Shown piece by piece: positions 6,592-56,038 of a stretch of DNA of 64,000 bases. The first letter of the stretch is position 1. Every line of letters begins with the position of its first letter. Under the pieces are notes generated by a model that ran no database searches, was not told where the DNA came from, and was given only the letters and a program-made list of their open reading frames with translations. The DNA comes from a virus. A program made the position numbers and the translations under genes. The stretch covers positions 6,945 through 70,944 of the IMG/VR virus record IMGVR_UViG_3300042914_002629. One strand, written 5' to 3'.

Positions 6592-6983
6592 GCGTCGATG
6601 GTGTTGCGATCCGCGCTTACAGCGCAGAGATTCCCCTGTACCGGCAGATGTACGCCGACGAGATTTACCTAGCCGGCAAGCGCCTGTTCCCGAACGGCGG
6701 CGGCACCCCGGCGTCGGCGATCGTGAGCCTCACCCTGCCGGCCGGCACCCCCGACAACACCATCACGGCCGTGGCCAACCTGTCCGCCACCACATGCGTG
6801 CTGTCGACCGCCAACACCTACACCGACGCCGCGGTCAAAACCGCCGTGGACAACGCCATCGCTGCGCTTCAGACCAAGATCGACGCGGCCTTCAACACGG
6901 TGGAGCAGAACATCCTGAACGCCGCGAAGAAGATCAATGATGATCTGGCGGCCGAGCGGGCTTATGGGGTGATTGCACCGTAA
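6588..6983 (+). CDS. putative head fiber/decoration protein
   Basis: Ala/Thr-rich with a coiled-coil C-terminus (KINDDLAAERAYGVI); RBS AAGGAG; ATGA overlap. Confidence 0.55.
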   Translation: MSVDGVAIRAYSAEIPLYRQMYADEIYLAGKRLFPNGGGTPASAIVSLTLPAGTPDNTITAVANLSATTCVLSTANTYTDAAVKTAVDNAIAALQTKIDAAFNTVEQNILNAAKKINDDLAAERAYGVIAP

Positions 6984-33171: not shown

Positions 33172-33374
33172 CCATCAGCGTGAAGATCGAGAACACCATG
33201 GGGCCGACCCCGGCCGGCGCCGATGCCCGCAAGGTCAGGGTGACCTACGTCTACAAGGGCGCCCATGGCCATGCCGATCAGGTGTTGAAGCCGGACCTGG
33301 GGCCGGGTGAAAGCACCACGGTCCATATCCACACCGGGGCGGACATCCGGCTTGAAGAGGTGGACGCAGAATGA
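33168..33374 (+). CDS. small hypothetical protein
   Basis: GAAAGG RBS; ATGA overlaps at both ends. Confidence 0.6.
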   Translation: MTISVKIENTMGPTPAGADARKVRVTYVYKGAHGHADQVLKPDLGPGESTTVHIHTGADIRLEEVDAE

Positions 33375-34186
33375 TCCCCATGGGCTTTCGCGGCAAGGCC
33401 GAGGGCCGTTCCATCGGCATCTATGCCGACATCGCAGACAGCCTCGGCGCCGAGCCGGCGGCGGTTGAGGCCGTCGTGCTGGTGGAAGCCGGCGGGCGCG
33501 GGTTCCTGGCCGACAAGCGGCCCAAGATCCTGTTCGAGCGTCACAAATTCCACAAATTCACGGGCGGCCTCTACTCGGCCGATCACCCCGACATCAGCAA
33601 CAGCAAGGCGGGCGGCTACAAGGGCGGTGCGGCCGAATACGACCGGCTCGACCTGGCCATTGATCTTGACCGGGCCGCGGCCCTGCGCTCGGCGAGCTGG
33701 GGTCTGCCGCAGATCATGGGGTTCAACTCCAGCCCGGCCGGGTTCGACACGGTCGACGGGATGATCGAGGCGTTCTGCGCCAGCGAGGATGAGCAGCTTT
33801 GGGGCTTCTCGCGCTTCGTGAAGTCGATTGGCCTGGACGATGAGATCAGGGACAAGCGATGGACCGAATTTGCGGCCTACAACGGCACGGCCAACATCCC
33901 CGCCTATAGCCGCAAGCTGGTCGCCGCCTTCGCCGAGGTGATGCACCGGGCACACGATGAAGATATCCCGGCCGGACGCGCCGAGATCGCCGAGGCGCAA
34001 GCCATCCTCGTCCTTTTGGGCTACGATCCGCTGTCGGTGGATGGCTGGATGGGTCCGAAGACCGAAGCCGCCGTCCGCAAATTCCAGGGTGCCCACGGCC
34101 TCAAGGTGGATGGCGTGATCGGCACCAACACCCGCGCCGCCCTCTTCGGCGACGTGCCCAAGCCGGCGACACCGCCGGGCAACTAG
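33371..34186 (+). CDS. endolysin: N-acetylmuramidase (DUF3380-like) with a C-terminal peptidoglycan-binding domain
   Basis: VEAGGRGF, ILFERHKF, SASWGLPQIMGFN; DGWMGPKTEAAVRKFQ...DGVIG. Confidence 0.93.
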   Translation: MIPMGFRGKAEGRSIGIYADIADSLGAEPAAVEAVVLVEAGGRGFLADKRPKILFERHKFHKFTGGLYSADHPDISNSKAGGYKGGAAEYDRLDLAIDLDRAAALRSASWGLPQIMGFNSSPAGFDTVDGMIEAFCASEDEQLWGFSRFVKSIGLDDEIRDKRWTEFAAYNGTANIPAYSRKLVAAFAEVMHRAHDEDIPAGRAEIAEAQAILVLLGYDPLSVDGWMGPKTEAAVRKFQGAHGLKVDGVIGTNTRAALFGDVPKPATPPGN

Positions 34187-34843: not shown

Positions 34844-35211
34844 TGCGCCGGGGGTTGCTGGCCCGAATGGGGGCAATCGCCCTCCTGGGCCTCCTGTGCG
34901 CGTGCGACAAGCCCGAGGCGCGGGTGTACGCGCTCCAGACCGCCTACACCGCGGCGATGGAGCCGGCGGCCGACTATGTCGAGCTACCCAGATGCGGCAC
35001 AGTCGCGGCGCGTCCGCCGCTGTGCAGCGACCCGGCCACGGTCGATCGCATCCAGGATGCGGTGCGGATCGCTTCGCCGGCCATGCGCGGCGCTCAGGCG
35101 GCCGTGAGGGCCGATCCCGAGGCGCGGGCTGTCTGGCCCTTCCTCGACGCGGCGCAGGCGGCCCTGGCCGCTCTGATCGCCGCCACACCGGAGAAGCCCG
35201 ATGGAACCTAA
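34843..35211 (+). CDS. lipoprotein
   Basis: Signal MRRGLLARMGAIALLGLLCAC ending in a lipobox. Confidence 0.65.
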   Translation: MRRGLLARMGAIALLGLLCACDKPEARVYALQTAYTAAMEPAADYVELPRCGTVAARPPLCSDPATVDRIQDAVRIASPAMRGAQAAVRADPEARAVWPFLDAAQAALAALIAATPEKPDGT

Positions 35212-35398
35212 CTCGGTACGCTACGCCGTGGCGCTGCTGGAGCTGATCGTCAAGGTGGCCGACACCGGCACCGAAGTGTTCGGGATGGCGACCAAGGCGC
35301 TGGAGCTGTTGCAGCGCCAGGGCGCGCCGACCGCGGCCGAATGGGAAGCCCTGAACGCCAAGACCAAGGCGCTGGAAGACCGCATCCTGAACGGCTGA
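35201..35398 (+). CDS. small hypothetical protein (last late gene)
   Basis: GGAG RBS; PTAAEWEALN motif. Confidence 0.65.
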   Translation: MEPNSVRYAVALLELIVKVADTGTEVFGMATKALELLQRQGAPTAAEWEALNAKTKALEDRILNG

Positions 35399-35410
35399 TC
35401 GTCGGACAGC

Positions 35411-35446
35411 AAAAGGGCCGGGCCTCTGATGAGCGCCCGGCCCTTT
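35411..35446. terminator. bidirectional rho-independent terminator
   Basis: AAAAGGGCCGGG...CCCGGCCCTTT stem with T-tracts on both strands. Confidence 0.75.
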
Positions 35447-35658
35447 CCGTTTGGAGGCACCCTAGGGGCCTCTCGATCGCGACCGTGGCGTCCGGCAGTT
35501 GGAAGCCACGGCGGCGATGTCGCCGCGTCCGGCGCTATGCCGTATTCAAGCCCGCACGCTGATCGGGCTTTACTACCGGCGGCGGGGCGGACGAACCGGC
35601 CCCCGCAACCCCCACCCCTAGCTGGGCAGGGCACTCCTGCGCCAAGCTGCGCAGGATC

Positions 35659-35738
35659 TGGAGGATAGGGGGCGGTTTGGCAATCCGCTTCTCGGCCGCT
35701 AGACCGTGTCCTGATGCCGCTTAGACGACACCCTATCC
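35659..35738 (-). ncRNA. degenerate tRNA-like element with an encoded CCA
   Basis: GGATAGGG/CCCTATCC-TCCA acceptor stem, GTC..GAC D-arm, non-canonical anticodon and T loops. Confidence 0.55.
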
Positions 35739-36329
35739 ACTCGGACACCCCATCGGGGTGAAACTCATGGCCCCCGCCTGCCTCGGGCGGTATTCGCTTA
35801 GAGCCGGCGGATCGCCGACCCCGGCACGGACTCGAACCGTGGTTGCGCTTGCTCTCGGCCAGCGACCGGTAACGCTCCGGCTTCCTCGTAGAGTGGGGCC
35901 GACAAGGGATCGGCCAGACTTCAATGCAATGTAGTCCGGGCCAGCATTCGGCCCCACTCGAACCCCGTCCCCAATCTCGAAAGAGGGCTTGCACCTCCAC
36001 CGGCGATGCGGCCCTGCCGTTTGCAACCGGCCTGGCCTACACACACCGCCTCTCCACGTCGCTGGTGCAGGGCCGTGGATGCCCATCGTTCCGCCAGCTC
36101 GGCGCCTCGGACTTCTCGGGGTCAGTCGCGAAGCATCCCACAGCCTCCCGCGCCTTCGTCCAGGGGGGACTAGACTTGGCGCTGGTGTGTCCCGAGGGGA
36201 TCAACTGCTAAATAATATTGTGAACCGACCCGGTCACACAAGGTGACGATTTCGTTTGTTTTGCTGCCGCAAACGGAACATATTCCCCGGCGATGGGTTC
36301 GCCTTGCTGGCGTCCATCGTGACCTAACT

Positions 36330-36353
36330 GAGGGGCCTCGCGGCCCCTCTTTT
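36330..36353. terminator. terminator-like hairpin
   Basis: GAGGGGCC-TCGC-GGCCCCTC followed by TTTT. Confidence 0.55.
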
Positions 36354-36354
36354 G

Positions 36355-36852
36355 TCACCTCCCCTTGAACAAGAAATCGTCGGCATCATCGCCCATCCAG
36401 TCGAACGGATCGGCGCTGTGATCGTGCGGCTTGGCCTTCCGGCGCCGACGCGGCGTGGCCAGGCTGCGGTTGCGGTTCCCCGCGTGGCGATTGCCGCTGT
36501 AGGCTTCCCAGCCCTTGCCTCCCTCGCGGACCTGCTCGCTGTGCATCACGCCCCACACCCGGAGGTAGGCGTCATGCAGCGGCTTGTCCTTCACGGAGTC
36601 CTTGAAGTTGCCATAGTCGATTTCGAGGATGCGATCCGCGATCACCTGGGCCACGATCCGACGCGGCAGCAGAGTCCGGAAGCGGTAGTCCCTGCCGCCA
36701 CCCTCTTCCACCGCTATGTGGTCGCCGAAGACCTTCTCCAGGTGGCCCTTGAGCCTGGCCCGCACGCACACCTTGTCTTCGCGATCGGCGACGCTGCCTG
36801 GCGTGGGCGCCACAACGGAAATGAAGGCGTCGTTGAAGAAAATCCACGCCAT
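36355..36852 (-). CDS. conserved phage hypothetical protein
   Basis: MAWIFFNDAFISVV..VRAR..DYRFR..IDYGNFK pattern; CGAAAGGGCAAA before ATG. Confidence 0.75.
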   Translation of the reverse strand: MAWIFFNDAFISVVAPTPGSVADREDKVCVRARLKGHLEKVFGDHIAVEEGGGRDYRFRTLLPRRIVAQVIADRILEIDYGNFKDSVKDKPLHDAYLRVWGVMHSEQVREGGKGWEAYSGNRHAGNRNRSLATPRRRRKAKPHDHSADPFDWMGDDADDFLFKGR

Positions 36853-36908
36853 AGCTTTGCCCTTTCGATTTGGAGATAGATGGGGCGGCCGGAGCCGCCC
36901 CGAGTAGA

Positions 36909-38136: not shown

Positions 38137-38179
38137 TCTTCACAATTGTGAAGATAGGCGCCTCGACAGCCTGGGTCAA
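38137..38179 (-). promoter_or_regulatory. sigma70-like promoter TTGACC-N17-TATCTT with a perfect 18-bp palindrome TCTTCACAATTGTGAAGA
   Basis: -35 at 38174-38179, -10 at 38151-38156, palindrome at 38137-38154, A-rich tract upstream. Confidence 0.78.
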
Positions 38180-38191
38180 CATTTATTTTTC

Positions 38192-38413
38192 TTAAACAGA
38201 CTCCTTCGCGCGCTCCTGCTGCCGATCATCTTCGTGGCGCCACCCGCGCATCCAATCGTTGCGGGCGCGCGTGCCCTCGGCGTGCGTGCAGGCGTCGCGG
38301 CCGAGCCCGGCGCGCCTGGCGAACTTCCCCGTGTCGTGATCATCCTTGCGGATGTCGTGGTAGAGGGACTCGTATGTCCGGAAATCTTCGCTCACGACAG
38401 CACCGCGGACCAC
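38192..38413 (-). CDS. Rmf/CrpP-like small protein
   Basis: GKFARRAGLGRDAC...RNDWMRGW pattern. Confidence 0.55.
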   Translation of the reverse strand: MVRGAVVSEDFRTYESLYHDIRKDDHDTGKFARRAGLGRDACTHAEGTRARNDWMRGWRHEDDRQQERAKESV

Positions 38414-39357: not shown

Positions 39358-39500
39358 GCACCCACCGACCGTTTGCCGGCTGCCCAGCAGATCGCCACCC
39401 CGTAGCCCAGGATCGCCGCCCATGCCGTGCCCCCGATGATGATGGTCCACATGATATCGCCCTCTCGCGTTCAGTCTCTATGTCTTCACAATACGCAAGT

Positions 39501-45215: not shown

Positions 45216-45283
45216 CTTGCATTTGCCCTCTCGCCGGCAGAACATCACCCCATCTTCACAACTGGTCAAGGGCATTATTCACA

Positions 45284-45838
45284 ATGCGACATCCTCGCCG
45301 CGTCCCGCGCCAATGCTCGGCCGAAGGGCCGATGCAAGCCGCCATCGCCTCGTACCTCGACGGCCTGGCCGCGACATTCCCGTGCGACATAGCATGGGCA
45401 CACCCGCCCAACGAGGGCAGCCGCGATATCGTCTATGCCAAAAAGCTGAAGGGCCAGGGGGTGAAGGCGGGCGACCTCGACGTGGCCCTCTACATGGCCG
45501 GCGGCTGCACGGTCTTTGTCGAGCTGAAGACATTCGACGGCAGCATGAAGCCGGAGCAGCTATCCCGGATCGCCACCCTCTCGGGCCTCGGCTTCACCAC
45601 CTACGTGATCGCCGCCATCGCGCCCGCCGCGGCCGTGGACGCCATGTCGGCCGTGGTGGGGACCGAGGTGCTGTCCGCCTCCATGCGCCGCTCCATCGGC
45701 CCCAAGGTGCCGTTCCGGGTGCCGTACATGACCATGACGCCGTTGAGCTGGTATGTCTGGCCGGGCCGGGATGTCGTGGCCACGGGGCACAAAAGCGTCA
45801 CATCGATTATTCGGCACTATGAGAAGCAATCCCGGTGA
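45284..45838 (+). CDS. VRR-NUC domain endonuclease
   Basis: HPPNEG, GVKAGDLD, FVELK...G....EQ motifs. Confidence 0.85.
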   Translation: MRHPRRVPRQCSAEGPMQAAIASYLDGLAATFPCDIAWAHPPNEGSRDIVYAKKLKGQGVKAGDLDVALYMAGGCTVFVELKTFDGSMKPEQLSRIATLSGLGFTTYVIAAIAPAAAVDAMSAVVGTEVLSASMRRSIGPKVPFRVPYMTMTPLSWYVWPGRDVVATGHKSVTSIIRHYEKQSR

Positions 45839-46083
45839 TCAGTTCCGATGACCGCGACCGGGTGATCAAGCTGCTCACGCTGGCCGTCGACCAGTCCGAG
45901 GCGGTGGATGGCAGCGAGGCGCAGGCGGCCCTGGCGGCGGTGCGTCGCATCCTCTCCAGCCGCGGCGCCTCGCTGGCCGATGCTCTGATGGATCAGGAGG
46001 CGCTTGCGCTGCTTCGCGAAGCCCAGGCGCGGCCCGGCGCGGGATCGGCCGTGTTCGACCCGCTGCGCGATTTCGAGGGGTAG
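45835..46083 (+). CDS. hypothetical protein
   Basis: GTGA-coupled; RVIKLL...EAQAA helical motif. Confidence 0.55.
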   Translation: MISSDDRDRVIKLLTLAVDQSEAVDGSEAQAALAAVRRILSSRGASLADALMDQEALALLREAQARPGAGSAVFDPLRDFEG

Positions 46084-46417
46084 GAGCGCGGCCGGCGGGG
46101 AGGACTCCAACGCGCTCCCATTGCGCTCACGCCAGAGGCGAGGCTACGGCATGGAGGTTCACCGTGTCGCGCCGGCCACAGCAGGACTATAGGCCGCACC
46201 GTCCCCTTGCGAAAGGGGGTGGGGTGGTCCAAGAATGGAGAAGCCCCGCCGGGCTGCGAACCCAGGCGGGGCTATGGAGGGCGAGGCGCCGTTGCAAGCG
46301 GCCCGCGCCGCGACAGGCGGAGAAAGGACAGGTACGCCCGTGAGGGATAGTCTAGCGAAACGCCACGGCAATGCAAGGGGCGCCCGGCCATCGGGCGCGG
46401 ACGGGGGTTCATGACCA

Positions 46418-47443
46418 ATGCGTGAATATGGGAAGGTCGCGCCATCCTTCTGGACTGGCCGCACCGGTAAAAGCCTACGCCAAGACAGGGACGCGCAAGT
46501 CATTGCGCTCTACCTGATGACATCTCCACATGCGACGATGTACGGGGTCTATCACTGCCCGATCCTCTACATCGCCCACCACACCGGATGCTCCATAGAA
46601 GGGGCTTCCAAGGGGCTTCAAAGGCTCATTGATGGGGGGTATTGCACATACGATCACGACACCGAGACCGTTTTTGTGCATGAGATGGCCCGTTTCCAGA
46701 TCGGTGAGTCTCTGAAGCGCGGCGACAAGCGCGTTTACGGCACCATCGCCGAGCTAGACCGGATGCCAAAAGGCGTTATCCGTGAAGGGTTTAGGCGCAG
46801 ATACGGCGCCGCCTACCATCTCCCGCCGCCTTCACAATCCGATGAGTTTCAAGCAAGCCCCTTGGAAGCCCCTTCCCAGCCCCTCCGAAGCCAGGAGCAG
46901 GAGAAGGAGAAGGAGAGAGAGAAGGAACAGGAAAAGAAAAGCACTGCTATCGCAGTGCCAAAAGAAAGCGCGGCGCCGCCTCAAGCCGACCCGATGCCAT
47001 CGGCTCAACCGACACCATCAGCACCCCTCCCGGCCATCGCCACGCCGAAGGCTCGGGCCAGGCAACCCACCCGCATCCCGTCCGATTGGTCACCCACAGA
47101 AAAGGATCTGGCCTTTGCCGAGAGCCGCGGCTTCGACGTGGTGAGGGCCATGGAGATCAGCGACCAGTTCCGGGACCACTACCTCGCCTCCAGCGGCAAG
47201 GGCTCGACCAGCCCCGATTGGGAAGCGAAGTGGCGGACGTGGATCGGCAACGAGGTGAAATACGCCGCCGAGCGCGCAGAGCGCGGCCCCAGGAGCAACG
47301 GCGGTGCCAGGCGCAACGGCGTGGCTGGCGACTACGAAGCCCACCAGCGGCTCTACCGGCAGCGCGGTGGCGACCAGCAGCCAGCACCGCACCATGAGCC
47401 CGACGAAATCGACCGCATTCTAGGAATTGGAGAACCCCGTTGA
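46418..47443 (+). CDS. phage replication initiator protein
   Basis: MREYGKVAPSFW, LYLMTSPH..YGVY; acidic linker; C-terminal F.DHY...DWEAKWRTW domain. Confidence 0.8.
   Translation: MREYGKVAPSFWTGRTGKSLRQDRDAQVIALYLMTSPHATMYGVYHCPILYIAHHTGCSIEGASKGLQRLIDGGYCTYDHDTETVFVHEMARFQIGESLKRGDKRVYGTIAELDRMPKGVIREGFRRRYGAAYHLPPPSQSDEFQASPLEAPSQPLRSQEQEKEKEREKEQEKKSTAIAVPKESAAPPQADPMPSAQPTPSAPLPAIATPKARARQPTRIPSDWSPTEKDLAFAESRGFDVVRAMEISDQFRDHYLASSGKGSTSPDWEAKWRTWIGNEVKYAAERAERGPRSNGGARRNGVAGDYEAHQRLYRQRGGDQQPAPHHEPDEIDRILGIGEPR
46599..46940. repeat. iteron-like AAGCCCCTT repeats (putative replication origin)
   Basis: AAGGGGCTT x2 at 46599-46618 and 11-bp-spaced AAGCCCCTT/CAGCCCCTC at 46855-46892, followed by a purine tract. 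Confidence 0.65.
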
Positions 47444-55964: not shown

Positions 55965-56038
55965 GCCTCTTTAGCTCAGTGGTAGAGCAGCCGGCTCCAA
56001 CCCGGCCGATCAGGGTTCGATTCCTTGGGGAGGTGCCA
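55965..56038 (+). tRNA. trnW: tRNA-Trp (CCA)
   Basis: Cloverleaf: TAGCTCAGTGGTAGAGC D-arm, GCCGG-CTCCAAC-CCGGC anticodon arm, GGTTCGATTCC T-arm, discriminator G then CCA. Confidence 0.92.

Follow-up and report, generated by a model that had tools for sequence, protein, structure and literature searches.

A non-coding spacer with tRNA-like RNA modules between the late and early genes of a phage from lake water

A gene-free stretch where late and early genes meet

The DNA analysed here is a 64 kb window (GC content 66%) comprising positions 6945–70944 of the 70,944-base IMG/VR record IMGVR_UViG_3300042914_002629, a phage sequence. Within the window lies a ~0.9 kb gap without genes (35447–36354; all coordinates are window positions unless another locus is named). 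This stretch is present, almost unchanged, in four sequencing runs labelled as lake-water metagenomes, of which three are possible sources. An initial annotation had proposed that the gap encodes an ornate, ~800 nt non-coding RNA on the minus strand, belonging to a class such as GOLLD or ROOL or founding a new one. The underlying observation is largely real; the "ornate" and class interpretations are not carried by the tests described below. We regard the gap as a non-coding spacer that carries a small number of well-formed local RNA modules; two or three of these look tRNA-derived.

On the plus strand, to the left of the gap, structural genes are followed by a muramidase gene (33371–34186; PF11860 at 6.6e-48, plus PG_binding_1) and three small genes, the last of which ends at 35398. 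On the minus strand, to the right, the early genes end at 36355, the nearest encoding a 165-aa protein of no family and a DUF932 protein; other early genes give weak or partial matches to ribosome modulation factor (RMF), DUF1643, the DNA polymerase III beta clamp and an HTH protein. With late genes (plus strand) on its left and early genes (minus strand) on its right, the gap is therefore the meeting point of converging transcription units, and the gene layout agrees with the location originally given. The only tRNA gene in the window encodes tRNA-Trp (55965–56038), 20 kb from the gap.

The gap is non-coding. The spread of GC across codon positions (third-position GC periodicity) is 0.02–0.18 across 35400–36300, with a single bump of 0.26 near 36060, while flanking genes show 0.3–0.56. 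Low-periodicity runs of at least 330 nt occur four times in the window, and two of these constitute the gap. Ten stop-to-stop frames of the gap match no Pfam family at E≤1, except for a 16-bit DUF5679 match at its edge (36173–36385), and eight frames match no PHROGs family. The longest internal frame (155 aa) gives a single tblastn match, at E 0.2, among 50,697 phage records. The loss of periodicity and the lack of Pfam and PHROGs families thus bear out the original statement that there is no convincing coding sequence. GC content remains at 65–70% over 35400–36100, as in the genes, and falls to 0.53–0.58 only in 36120–36300; plus-strand GC skew is −0.09 to −0.19 over 35600–36100 (i.e., the minus strand is G-rich).

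It is extremely unlikely that the gap conceals small or atypical protein genes, such as the minus-strand frames of 27 codons (36316–36233) or 55 codons (36204–36037). The latter does have a third-position GC of 0.82, and the periodicity bump near 36060 could be read in the same way; however, its second-position GC is 0.64 (0.45–0.5 in the phage's genes), it has no family or phage match, and it is rich in Arg, Pro and Gly, as an out-of-frame reading would be. The 27-codon frame (36233–36316) would encode a basic peptide; it lies in the lower-GC segment just past the last early gene and is preceded by a weak ribosome-binding site (AGG).

Local RNA modules on the minus strand

Four local features stand out, all on the minus strand: (i) a T-arm, (ii) a 69 nt hairpin, (iii) a 76 nt cloverleaf, and (iv) a loop-E-like hairpin. 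The first, CACGG-UUCGAGU-CCGUG (35841–35825), is a canonical tRNA T-arm, with 5 bp, the G53-C61 pair and a loop of the form UUCRANN. It is one of two sequences initially listed as T-loop hairpins; the other, GAGG-UGCAAGC-CCUC, merely has a 7 nt loop. Only two canonical T-arms occur in the window, the second belonging to tRNA-Trp. In 160 other phage and metagenome loci (907,816 bases), which served as a control, the motif was found 60 times, 45 of them inside tRNAs reported by ARAGORN. The 15 occurrences outside such tRNAs lead to an expectation of ~0.015 in the gap by chance, and several of the 15 look by eye like unrecognised tRNA 3' ends.

The T-arm is part of a tRNA-shaped element with a long extra arm (35816–35900, minus strand), the 5' strand of which overlaps the 3' strand of the 69 nt hairpin. 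ARAGORN reports no tRNA or tmRNA (transfer-messenger RNA) in the gap at default settings. At 90% of default thresholds the element is one of seven genome hits, the remaining six being the true tRNA-Trp and five unconfirmed predictions; further relaxation, with tmRNA and intron modes included, produces noise-level predictions (161 genome hits at 80% thresholds). The element has a G at position 33, does not combine a 7 nt anticodon loop carrying U33 with a D loop carrying GG, and shows no marked folding stability relative to shuffled sequence (35810–35905; z −0.64).

The 69 nt hairpin (35891–35959, minus strand) is composed of 12 perfect bp, a 4/8 internal loop, ~10–11 more bp and a 12 nt loop. 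It folds better than all of its shuffles (z −3.70; 0/200 as good) and carries GCCGAAUG at the junction of stem and loop (35952–35945).

The cloverleaf occupies 35738–35663 on the minus strand, with UCCA directly after it (35659–35738 in all). Its minimum-energy fold consists of three hairpins within an 8 bp closing stem, GGAUAGGG/CCCUAUCC (z −1.93; 8/200 shuffles as good). An alternative 5' strand, GAUGGGG, is available at 35754–35748. By eye, 35754–35660 can be arranged in the layout of a long-arm (class II) tRNA: a 7 bp acceptor stem, a 3 bp D stem with a GAGUGG loop, an anticodon stem with two mismatches, the extra arm CGGUC-UAGC-GGCCG and a degenerate T loop. Because the tRNA covariance model has no match here at E≤10, we attach little importance to this layout.

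The fourth feature (35542–35576, minus strand) has a symmetric GUA/GAA 3x3 internal loop between an inner stem of 7 bp and an outer stem of 3 bp. The loop-E motif of the initial annotation is thus present as an internal loop, but does not take the canonical loop-E/sarcin-ricin form (AGUA/GAA with flanking pairs). In its relaxed form it is the sole instance on either strand of the 70.9 kb genome (0.03 expected; 3/100 shuffles), by a test that was defined post hoc.

The elements thus resemble phage tRNA genes, tRNA pseudogenes and tRNA-like small RNAs in several respects: they lie in a gene-free part of a phage genome, their sense strand is G-rich, the T-arm is canonical and has an acceptor strand beside it, and the cloverleaf has the size of a tRNA and ends in NCCA. 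Unlike tRNAs, the elements fail the covariance model and default ARAGORN, their anticodon and D loops are non-canonical, and only 24 nt match a real tRNA.

An exact match to the 3' part of tRNA-Lys(CUU)

These 24 nt (35819–35842, minus strand) comprise the T-arm and six acceptor bases, and are identical to the 3' part of tRNA-Lys(CUU) from Verrucomicrobiota. A search of 185,579 species genomes returned exact copies of a 23-mer in 47 stretches, 44 of which have record titles naming Verrucomicrobiota lineages; one base more is matched, giving 24 nt at 100%, in two genomes (G001 and G002). Of 49 matches to the 23-mer, 46 lie within tRNA-Lys(CUU) genes of full length. The remaining three comprise partial copies downstream of the gene, at loci L173 and L185, and a partial gene at L181. 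In the phage, the sequence upstream of the 24 nt block is unlike this tRNA, and the sequence downstream diverges at the last acceptor base and lacks ACCA.

In L173 (6032–6160) and L185 (1600–1728), the second, partial tRNA-Lys(CUU) 3' end lies ~106 nt downstream of the gene and is preceded by a short hairpin; the L181 copy (~7436) begins in the anticodon loop. All three look like att (attachment) scars left by integrated elements. In addition, two IMG/VR contigs contain a longer partial copy of tRNA-Lys with the same T-arm, running from the anticodon loop through CCA. Both records also hold an integrase-like frame (E ~2e-6, under the Pfam cut-off), and in one of them, L252, this frame is <1 kb from the copy, an arrangement with the appearance of a genuine att site on tRNA-Lys.

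The gap itself could be a relic of this kind, namely a decayed tRNA gene cluster and/or a former lysogeny junction with its attP core in the tRNA-Lys 3' end and its integrase lost. Its hairpins would then be leftovers together with chance stems in GC-rich DNA. We consider this rather doubtful in itself, and nearly as likely as the reading that we favour (see Discussion). The tRNA-Lys identity is sharp-edged and covers exactly the T-arm and acceptor bases, the portion of a tRNA gene that serves as an att core, and the two IMG/VR contigs show the same T-arm in partial copies, one close to an integrase-like frame. In phage lambda, attP-int sits between the convergent late and early-left operons, a position matched by that of the gap, which also has hairpins nearby. 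The phage encodes a 191-aa HTH_3 protein that resembles a repressor. Both tRNA-shaped elements are tRNA-like in length with broken loops and stems, folding stability is ordinary (below), and the 5' edge varies in a close relative.

However, neither a tyrosine nor a serine recombinase (PF00589, PF00239) was found across the 70.9 kb record; the genes adjoining the gap encode the 165-aa and DUF932 proteins, with no integrase next to the site; and no gap frame carries a trace of a protein family. The exact block is 24 nt long and ends before the tRNA's last acceptor pair and CCA, whereas the two att-like copies are longer, from anticodon loop to CCA. Furthermore, phages rarely retain 0.9 kb of junk, the gap keeps the genome's GC level and strand skew, and the T-arm and the perfect 12 bp stem remain intact.

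The exact match would also give a lead to a Verrucomicrobiota host for an otherwise orphan lake phage. The lead is weak: the GC content of the tRNA-Lys-matching loci differs from that of the phage (49–61% vs 66%) and the family of the 165-aa protein is no closer there: matches were obtained in 25 of 401 Verrucomicrobiota genomes, all at ≤40% identity, while other metagenomes gave up to 56%.

Folding statistics and comparison with known RNA classes

All of the stems initially listed for the gap are present at their positions. In sequence of 66–70% GC the presence of stems says little by itself, hence the use of controls. Perfect stems with arms of at least 8 nt and loops of up to 60 nt are modestly enriched (4 observed vs 1.02 ± 1.02 expected; 4/200 shuffles reach 4), and the longest, of 12 bp, is reached by 2/200 shuffles; 7 bp stems are not enriched (6 observed vs 4.1 expected). 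On the minus strand, 150 nt windows inside 35500–36200 have z-scores of −1.3 to +1.5, the strongly negative windows being at the terminator (35400) and in the 36200–36300 segment. A 751 nt core that excludes both terminators gives z −2.39 on the minus strand (1/50 shuffles as good) and −0.67 on the plus strand (10/50). The full 811 nt gives z −3.4, which owes much to the included terminator hairpin. Eight same-size windows from elsewhere in the phage, each folded on both strands (14 shuffles each), range from z +1.8 to −4.05, and 7 of these 16 controls score at or below −2.25; they are mostly coding, two of the eight falling in the partly non-coding 45.3–47.4 kb region. Since the controls score as low, the overall fold is not unusual, and the description of the RNA as "ornate" is not supported.

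Neither did the proposed class find support: cmscan yields no match over the gathering score in the gap, and over the whole window only tRNA-Trp exceeds it. At E≤10, a search of 35200–36500 gives 12 weak matches, none near threshold and none to GOLLD, ROOL, tmRNA, group I intron or tRNA. A group I intron in a tRNA was rejected on the lack of a model match, and a retron on the lack of a reverse transcriptase.

A single, large (~800 nt) ornate RNA, distantly allied to GOLLD and ROOL or founding a class of its own, is accordingly very unlikely. The gap is long, GC-rich and non-coding, with many stems and a terminator at its flank; its long stems are enriched; and a 307 nt multibranch domain (35817–36123, minus strand) self-closes next to the T-arm through GACCCCG/CGGGGUC, a stem shared by the minimum-energy and the centroid fold of 35810–36125 (z −1.77; 6/100 shuffles as good). 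The phage also comes from lake water, and GOLLD is known from that habitat (PMC12286853). Unlike GOLLD and ROOL, however, the gap has no adjacent tRNA gene, no family of homologues (no second example by pattern in 2.9 million viral contigs, or by sequence in 164 related loci), no excess folding stability over control regions, and no Rfam match, even at E≤10, to GOLLD, ROOL, OLE, HEARO, raiA or another large RNA.

The 307 nt domain recalls the tRNA-like domain of tmRNA in stacking an acceptor stem beside a T-arm, with a large insertion replacing the anticodon arm. Unlike tmRNA, it has no G3-U70 pair, encoded CCA, tag frame or Rfam tmRNA match. ARAGORN sees the domain only at 85% thresholds, as a tRNA with a 218 nt "intron", and its sole tmRNA call at 80% thresholds is a plus-strand artefact.

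The best Rfam match in the gap is YrlB, on the 69 nt hairpin, at 24.2 bits against a gathering score of 97 (E 0.042 for all families over 1.3 kb; 5.4e-4 for the one family over the genome). None of 50 related viral records reaches E≤0.05 with this model, and YrlA gives no match in the gap. Chen et al. 2014 (PMC4201824) describe Y RNAs, some with T-arms, processed from one precursor, and link the motif GNCGAAN0-1G to Ro60 binding. On the 5' strand of the hairpin stem GCCGAAUG fits this motif, a fit that carries little weight because ~90 occurrences in the window are expected by chance (our own composition estimate). Like YrlA and YrlB (RF02553, RF02565), then, the gap has a long hairpin with the motif at a stem junction and a T-arm 50 nt downstream; unlike them, it scores 24 bits against a threshold of 97, in a phage without Ro60/TROVE.

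Indeed, Ro60/TROVE (PF05731) has no match in the 70.9 kb record (control genomes were positive), and occurs in 3 of 201 Verrucomicrobiota genomes searched. The three Ro60 loci (L256, which is G001:C19; L257; L258) have YrlA-like matches below threshold (31–42 bits) and tRNA arrays; nothing in them resembles the hairpin, the best match to R1, a single-sequence covariance model of it, being 19.5 bits. For these reasons we do not adopt a Y RNA identity. In the alignments shown, the T loops of the tRNA arrays read GGUGCGA; L258 has ~20 tRNA matches.

Strand, promoter motif and terminators

The minus-strand orientation originally proposed is supported by the G-rich skew, the T-arm, the strand of the YrlB match, the folding asymmetry of the core and a terminator at 35446–35411. 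The last is a two-way intrinsic terminator hairpin (35411–35446, both strands): arms 35412–35423 and 35435–35446 form a perfect 12 bp stem with 11 nt between them, flanked by U-rich tracts in both directions (UUUU on the minus strand), and the 150 nt window at 35400 has z −4.5 (plus) and −5.8 (minus). Judged by its form, the hairpin would end the late, plus-strand operon and any minus-strand transcript of the gap.

Towards the early genes, two terminator-like hairpins (36233–36247 and 36330–36349, plus strand) each have a U-rich tail and no U tract on the minus strand; a terminator scan found these two, with shuffles averaging 1.1. Read-through from the early genes into the gap is plausible on the minus strand, because the hairpin past the last early gene (36349–36330) has no U tract in that direction.

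The AT-rich, promoter-like tract proposed at 36210–36245 stands in part. A copy of TTCACAAT is present (36217–36224, minus strand), in the lower-GC segment 36120–36300, but a sigma-70 scan of 35000–36900 returns no promoter-like site; by eye, TTGTGT-18-TATTAT (36241–36212) is a weak promoter candidate. TTCACAAT, which reads ATTGTGAA on the opposite strand, has nine copies in the window against 0.76 expected. The other sites are at 1116, 2070–2088, 38139–38152, 39485, 45255–45285, 46831 and 63518, and two copies are palindromic (2070–2088 and 38139–38152, the latter reading CTTCACAATTGTGAAG). Most copies lie just upstream of apparent gene starts; those at 39485 and 45278 are ~33 nt upstream of apparent minus-strand start codons and read ATTGTGAA in the direction of the gene. 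TTCACAAT is probably an operator or promoter element of a phage regulator, and the copy at 36217–36224 is possibly one such element.

A role at the level of DNA or of the plus strand, as a buffer between convergent transcription units or as an origin or protein-binding region, strikes us as improbable. In the buffer version, stacked plus-strand terminators (35411–35446, 36233–36247 and 36330–36349) would stop late read-through, and Rho would be favoured by the untranslated, C-rich RNA of that strand. The plus strand is poor in G and rich in C, and the phage's regulatory motif is present in one copy. However, terminators take tens of bases rather than 900, and the T-arm, the CCA-ended cloverleaf and the minus-strand folding bias are left unexplained. 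An origin with iterons was rejected for want of repeats: there are no iterons or repeat families, only two-copy repeats of 9–13 nt, and no part of the gap recurs when the genome is compared with itself.

Searches for homologues and for variation among sequencing runs

No match to the gap was obtained by blastn in distant mode among 50,697 phage records. Related loci were therefore fetched through neighbouring proteins. The 165-aa protein alone gave 0 relatives in viral contigs; as an alignment it gave 157 in viral contigs and at least 442 in metagenomes (80 of each kept; best identity 56%). The DUF932 protein added three loci at 32–49% identity, and a 340-aa protein (14003–15025; a presumed capsid, named without a family check) five at 29–37%. 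Against 84, then 164, of these loci, blastn (word size 7) gave nothing better than E 0.03 over ≤43 nt, and nhmmer gave nothing. Five, then 401, Verrucomicrobiota genomes returned only the tRNA-Lys 23–25-mer and short, GC-rich chance matches. A two-arm pattern of the long hairpin had no match among the 2.9 million viral contigs, model R1 found only the hairpin itself in 185 sources (~1.06 Mb), and Erythrobacter phage ZS04 and Microcystis phage Mae-JY30 contain no comparable gap in their annotated regions. By these comparisons the phage is an orphan, its closest IMG/VR relatives having 29–37% identity in the 340-aa protein and ≤56% in the 165-aa protein; the closest neighbour-protein relative on record, P0002, is 76% identical and lies on a 2.1 kb contig.

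Among the sequencing runs, X4 has long pieces spanning the gap without differences, and X6 and X7 each have a single short, identical contig. A relative in X5 (97% identical) covers only the gap edges; five of its six listed differences in 36151–36412 fall within 36182–36210.

In another phage contig, ~700 nt downstream of a homologue of the 165-aa protein, a tRNA-shaped sequence (L082, 5030–5101) has a 7 bp acceptor stem, a good T-arm and ACCA, and is not reported by ARAGORN.

Other hairpins and neighbouring genes

Three further hairpins lie on the minus strand of the gap: CCGUGGC/GCCACGG (35483–35511), a perfect 7 bp stem with a 15 nt loop; UCCUGCGC/GCGCAGGA (35635–35656), 8 bp with a 6 nt loop; and a hairpin with the 9 bp closing stem CGGCCCUGC/GCAGGGCCG (36009–36075). 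When the last is folded in isolation (76 nt; z −2.0), the minimum-energy structure leaves the CGGCCCUGC/GCAGGGCCG stem unused.

The 165-aa protein (36355–36852, minus strand) is widespread, given its 157 relatives in IMG/VR and at least 442 in metagenome contigs, yet neither Pfam nor PHROGs has a family for it. The first ~107 residues are conserved, with W3, F10, S12, R31, R33, D55-Y56, R59, N82-F83-K84, W100 and Q107 invariant, and are followed by a variable, basic tail. The RMF match mentioned above is that of a 73-aa protein (38192–38413, minus strand) and is sub-threshold (PF04957, E 1.8e-5, 25.1 bits against a cut-off of 27.9). A second largely gene-free stretch (45276–47440) lies between divergent early operons; its periodicity is low over 46021–46561, TTCACAAT occurs in it twice, and it has a few short frames whose third-position GC is high.

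Discussion

We tentatively favour the reading that the gap gives rise to a functional minus-strand transcript that is processed at its tRNA-derived modules, a possibility that we place somewhat short of an even chance. From the arrangement of the locus we infer the following course of transcription and processing. Transcription most likely runs leftward through the gap, either starting at a weak promoter near 36210–36245 or entering by read-through from the early operon, whose last hairpin has no U tract in that direction; it would stop at the 35446–35411 terminator. The transcript would be a series of separate local modules rather than one global, ornate fold. Two or three of these modules may derive from or imitate tRNA: (i) the T-arm and acceptor strand identical to tRNA-Lys(CUU), (ii) the UCCA-ended cloverleaf with its 8 bp acceptor-like stem, and (iii) the very stable long hairpin. 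RNase P, RNase Z and the CCA-adding enzyme could recognise the modules and cut the transcript into small, stable RNAs, which might act as tRNA mimics or decoys, or merely protect the 3' end of the early message. In favour of this reading are the non-coding character of the gap, its GC level and skew, the rarity of canonical T-arms, the tRNA-Lys(CUU) identity, the z-scores of the long hairpin and the cloverleaf, the enrichment of long stems, the folding of the core on the minus strand, and the placing of a terminator at the 3' end and of the TTCACAAT motif at the 5' end.

Several observations weigh against a functional, processed transcript. Firstly, with respect to structure, neither the global nor the 150 nt folding stability exceeds that of other parts of the phage; the gap has no match to the tRNA covariance model at E≤10; and the cloverleaf (35738–35663) has loops of 4 nt, without canonical D, anticodon or T loops. 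Secondly, with respect to transcription, the sigma-70 scan was negative, the two plus-strand terminators within 36233–36349 suggest transcription across the gap on the plus strand, and the TTCACAAT copy at 36217–36224 would point rightward, by analogy with those at 39485 and 45278. The one contig from an RNA library (X6; 210 nt, 36027–36235, depth 2.4) is uninformative on strand, ends and level, and extends 30 nt past the proposed start of the RNA. Thirdly, homologues of the gap were found in none of the collections searched, and the X5 differences, located at the 5' edge of the proposed RNA, hint at weak constraint there. Finally, genes for RtcB, a CCA-adding enzyme, Ro60 or a reverse transcriptase, any of which would tie the phage to RNA biology, were not found in it.

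If the gap is instead a relic, the case is a cautionary one: lists of stems read by eye in 66% GC DNA do not separate an ornate RNA from its background.

A more specific version of the processed-transcript reading, and one that we hold to be quite unlikely, is that a lytic phage of lake water produces a single non-coding precursor, from which the tRNA enzymes of the host release several tRNA mimics; these would serve as decoys for tRNA-binding or Ro60-binding host factors. The decoys would be the copy of the host tRNA-Lys T-arm and acceptor, the CCA-ended cloverleaf and the Y-RNA-like hairpin, and their targets would include, for example, tRNA-targeting defence nucleases. If true, this would constitute a new kind of phage counter-defence RNA locus. 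More generally, if the modules are expressed and processed, the gap would represent a phage locus that, though no tRNA gene, produces tRNA mimics, and would bear on how phages handle tRNA-targeting defences and enzymes.

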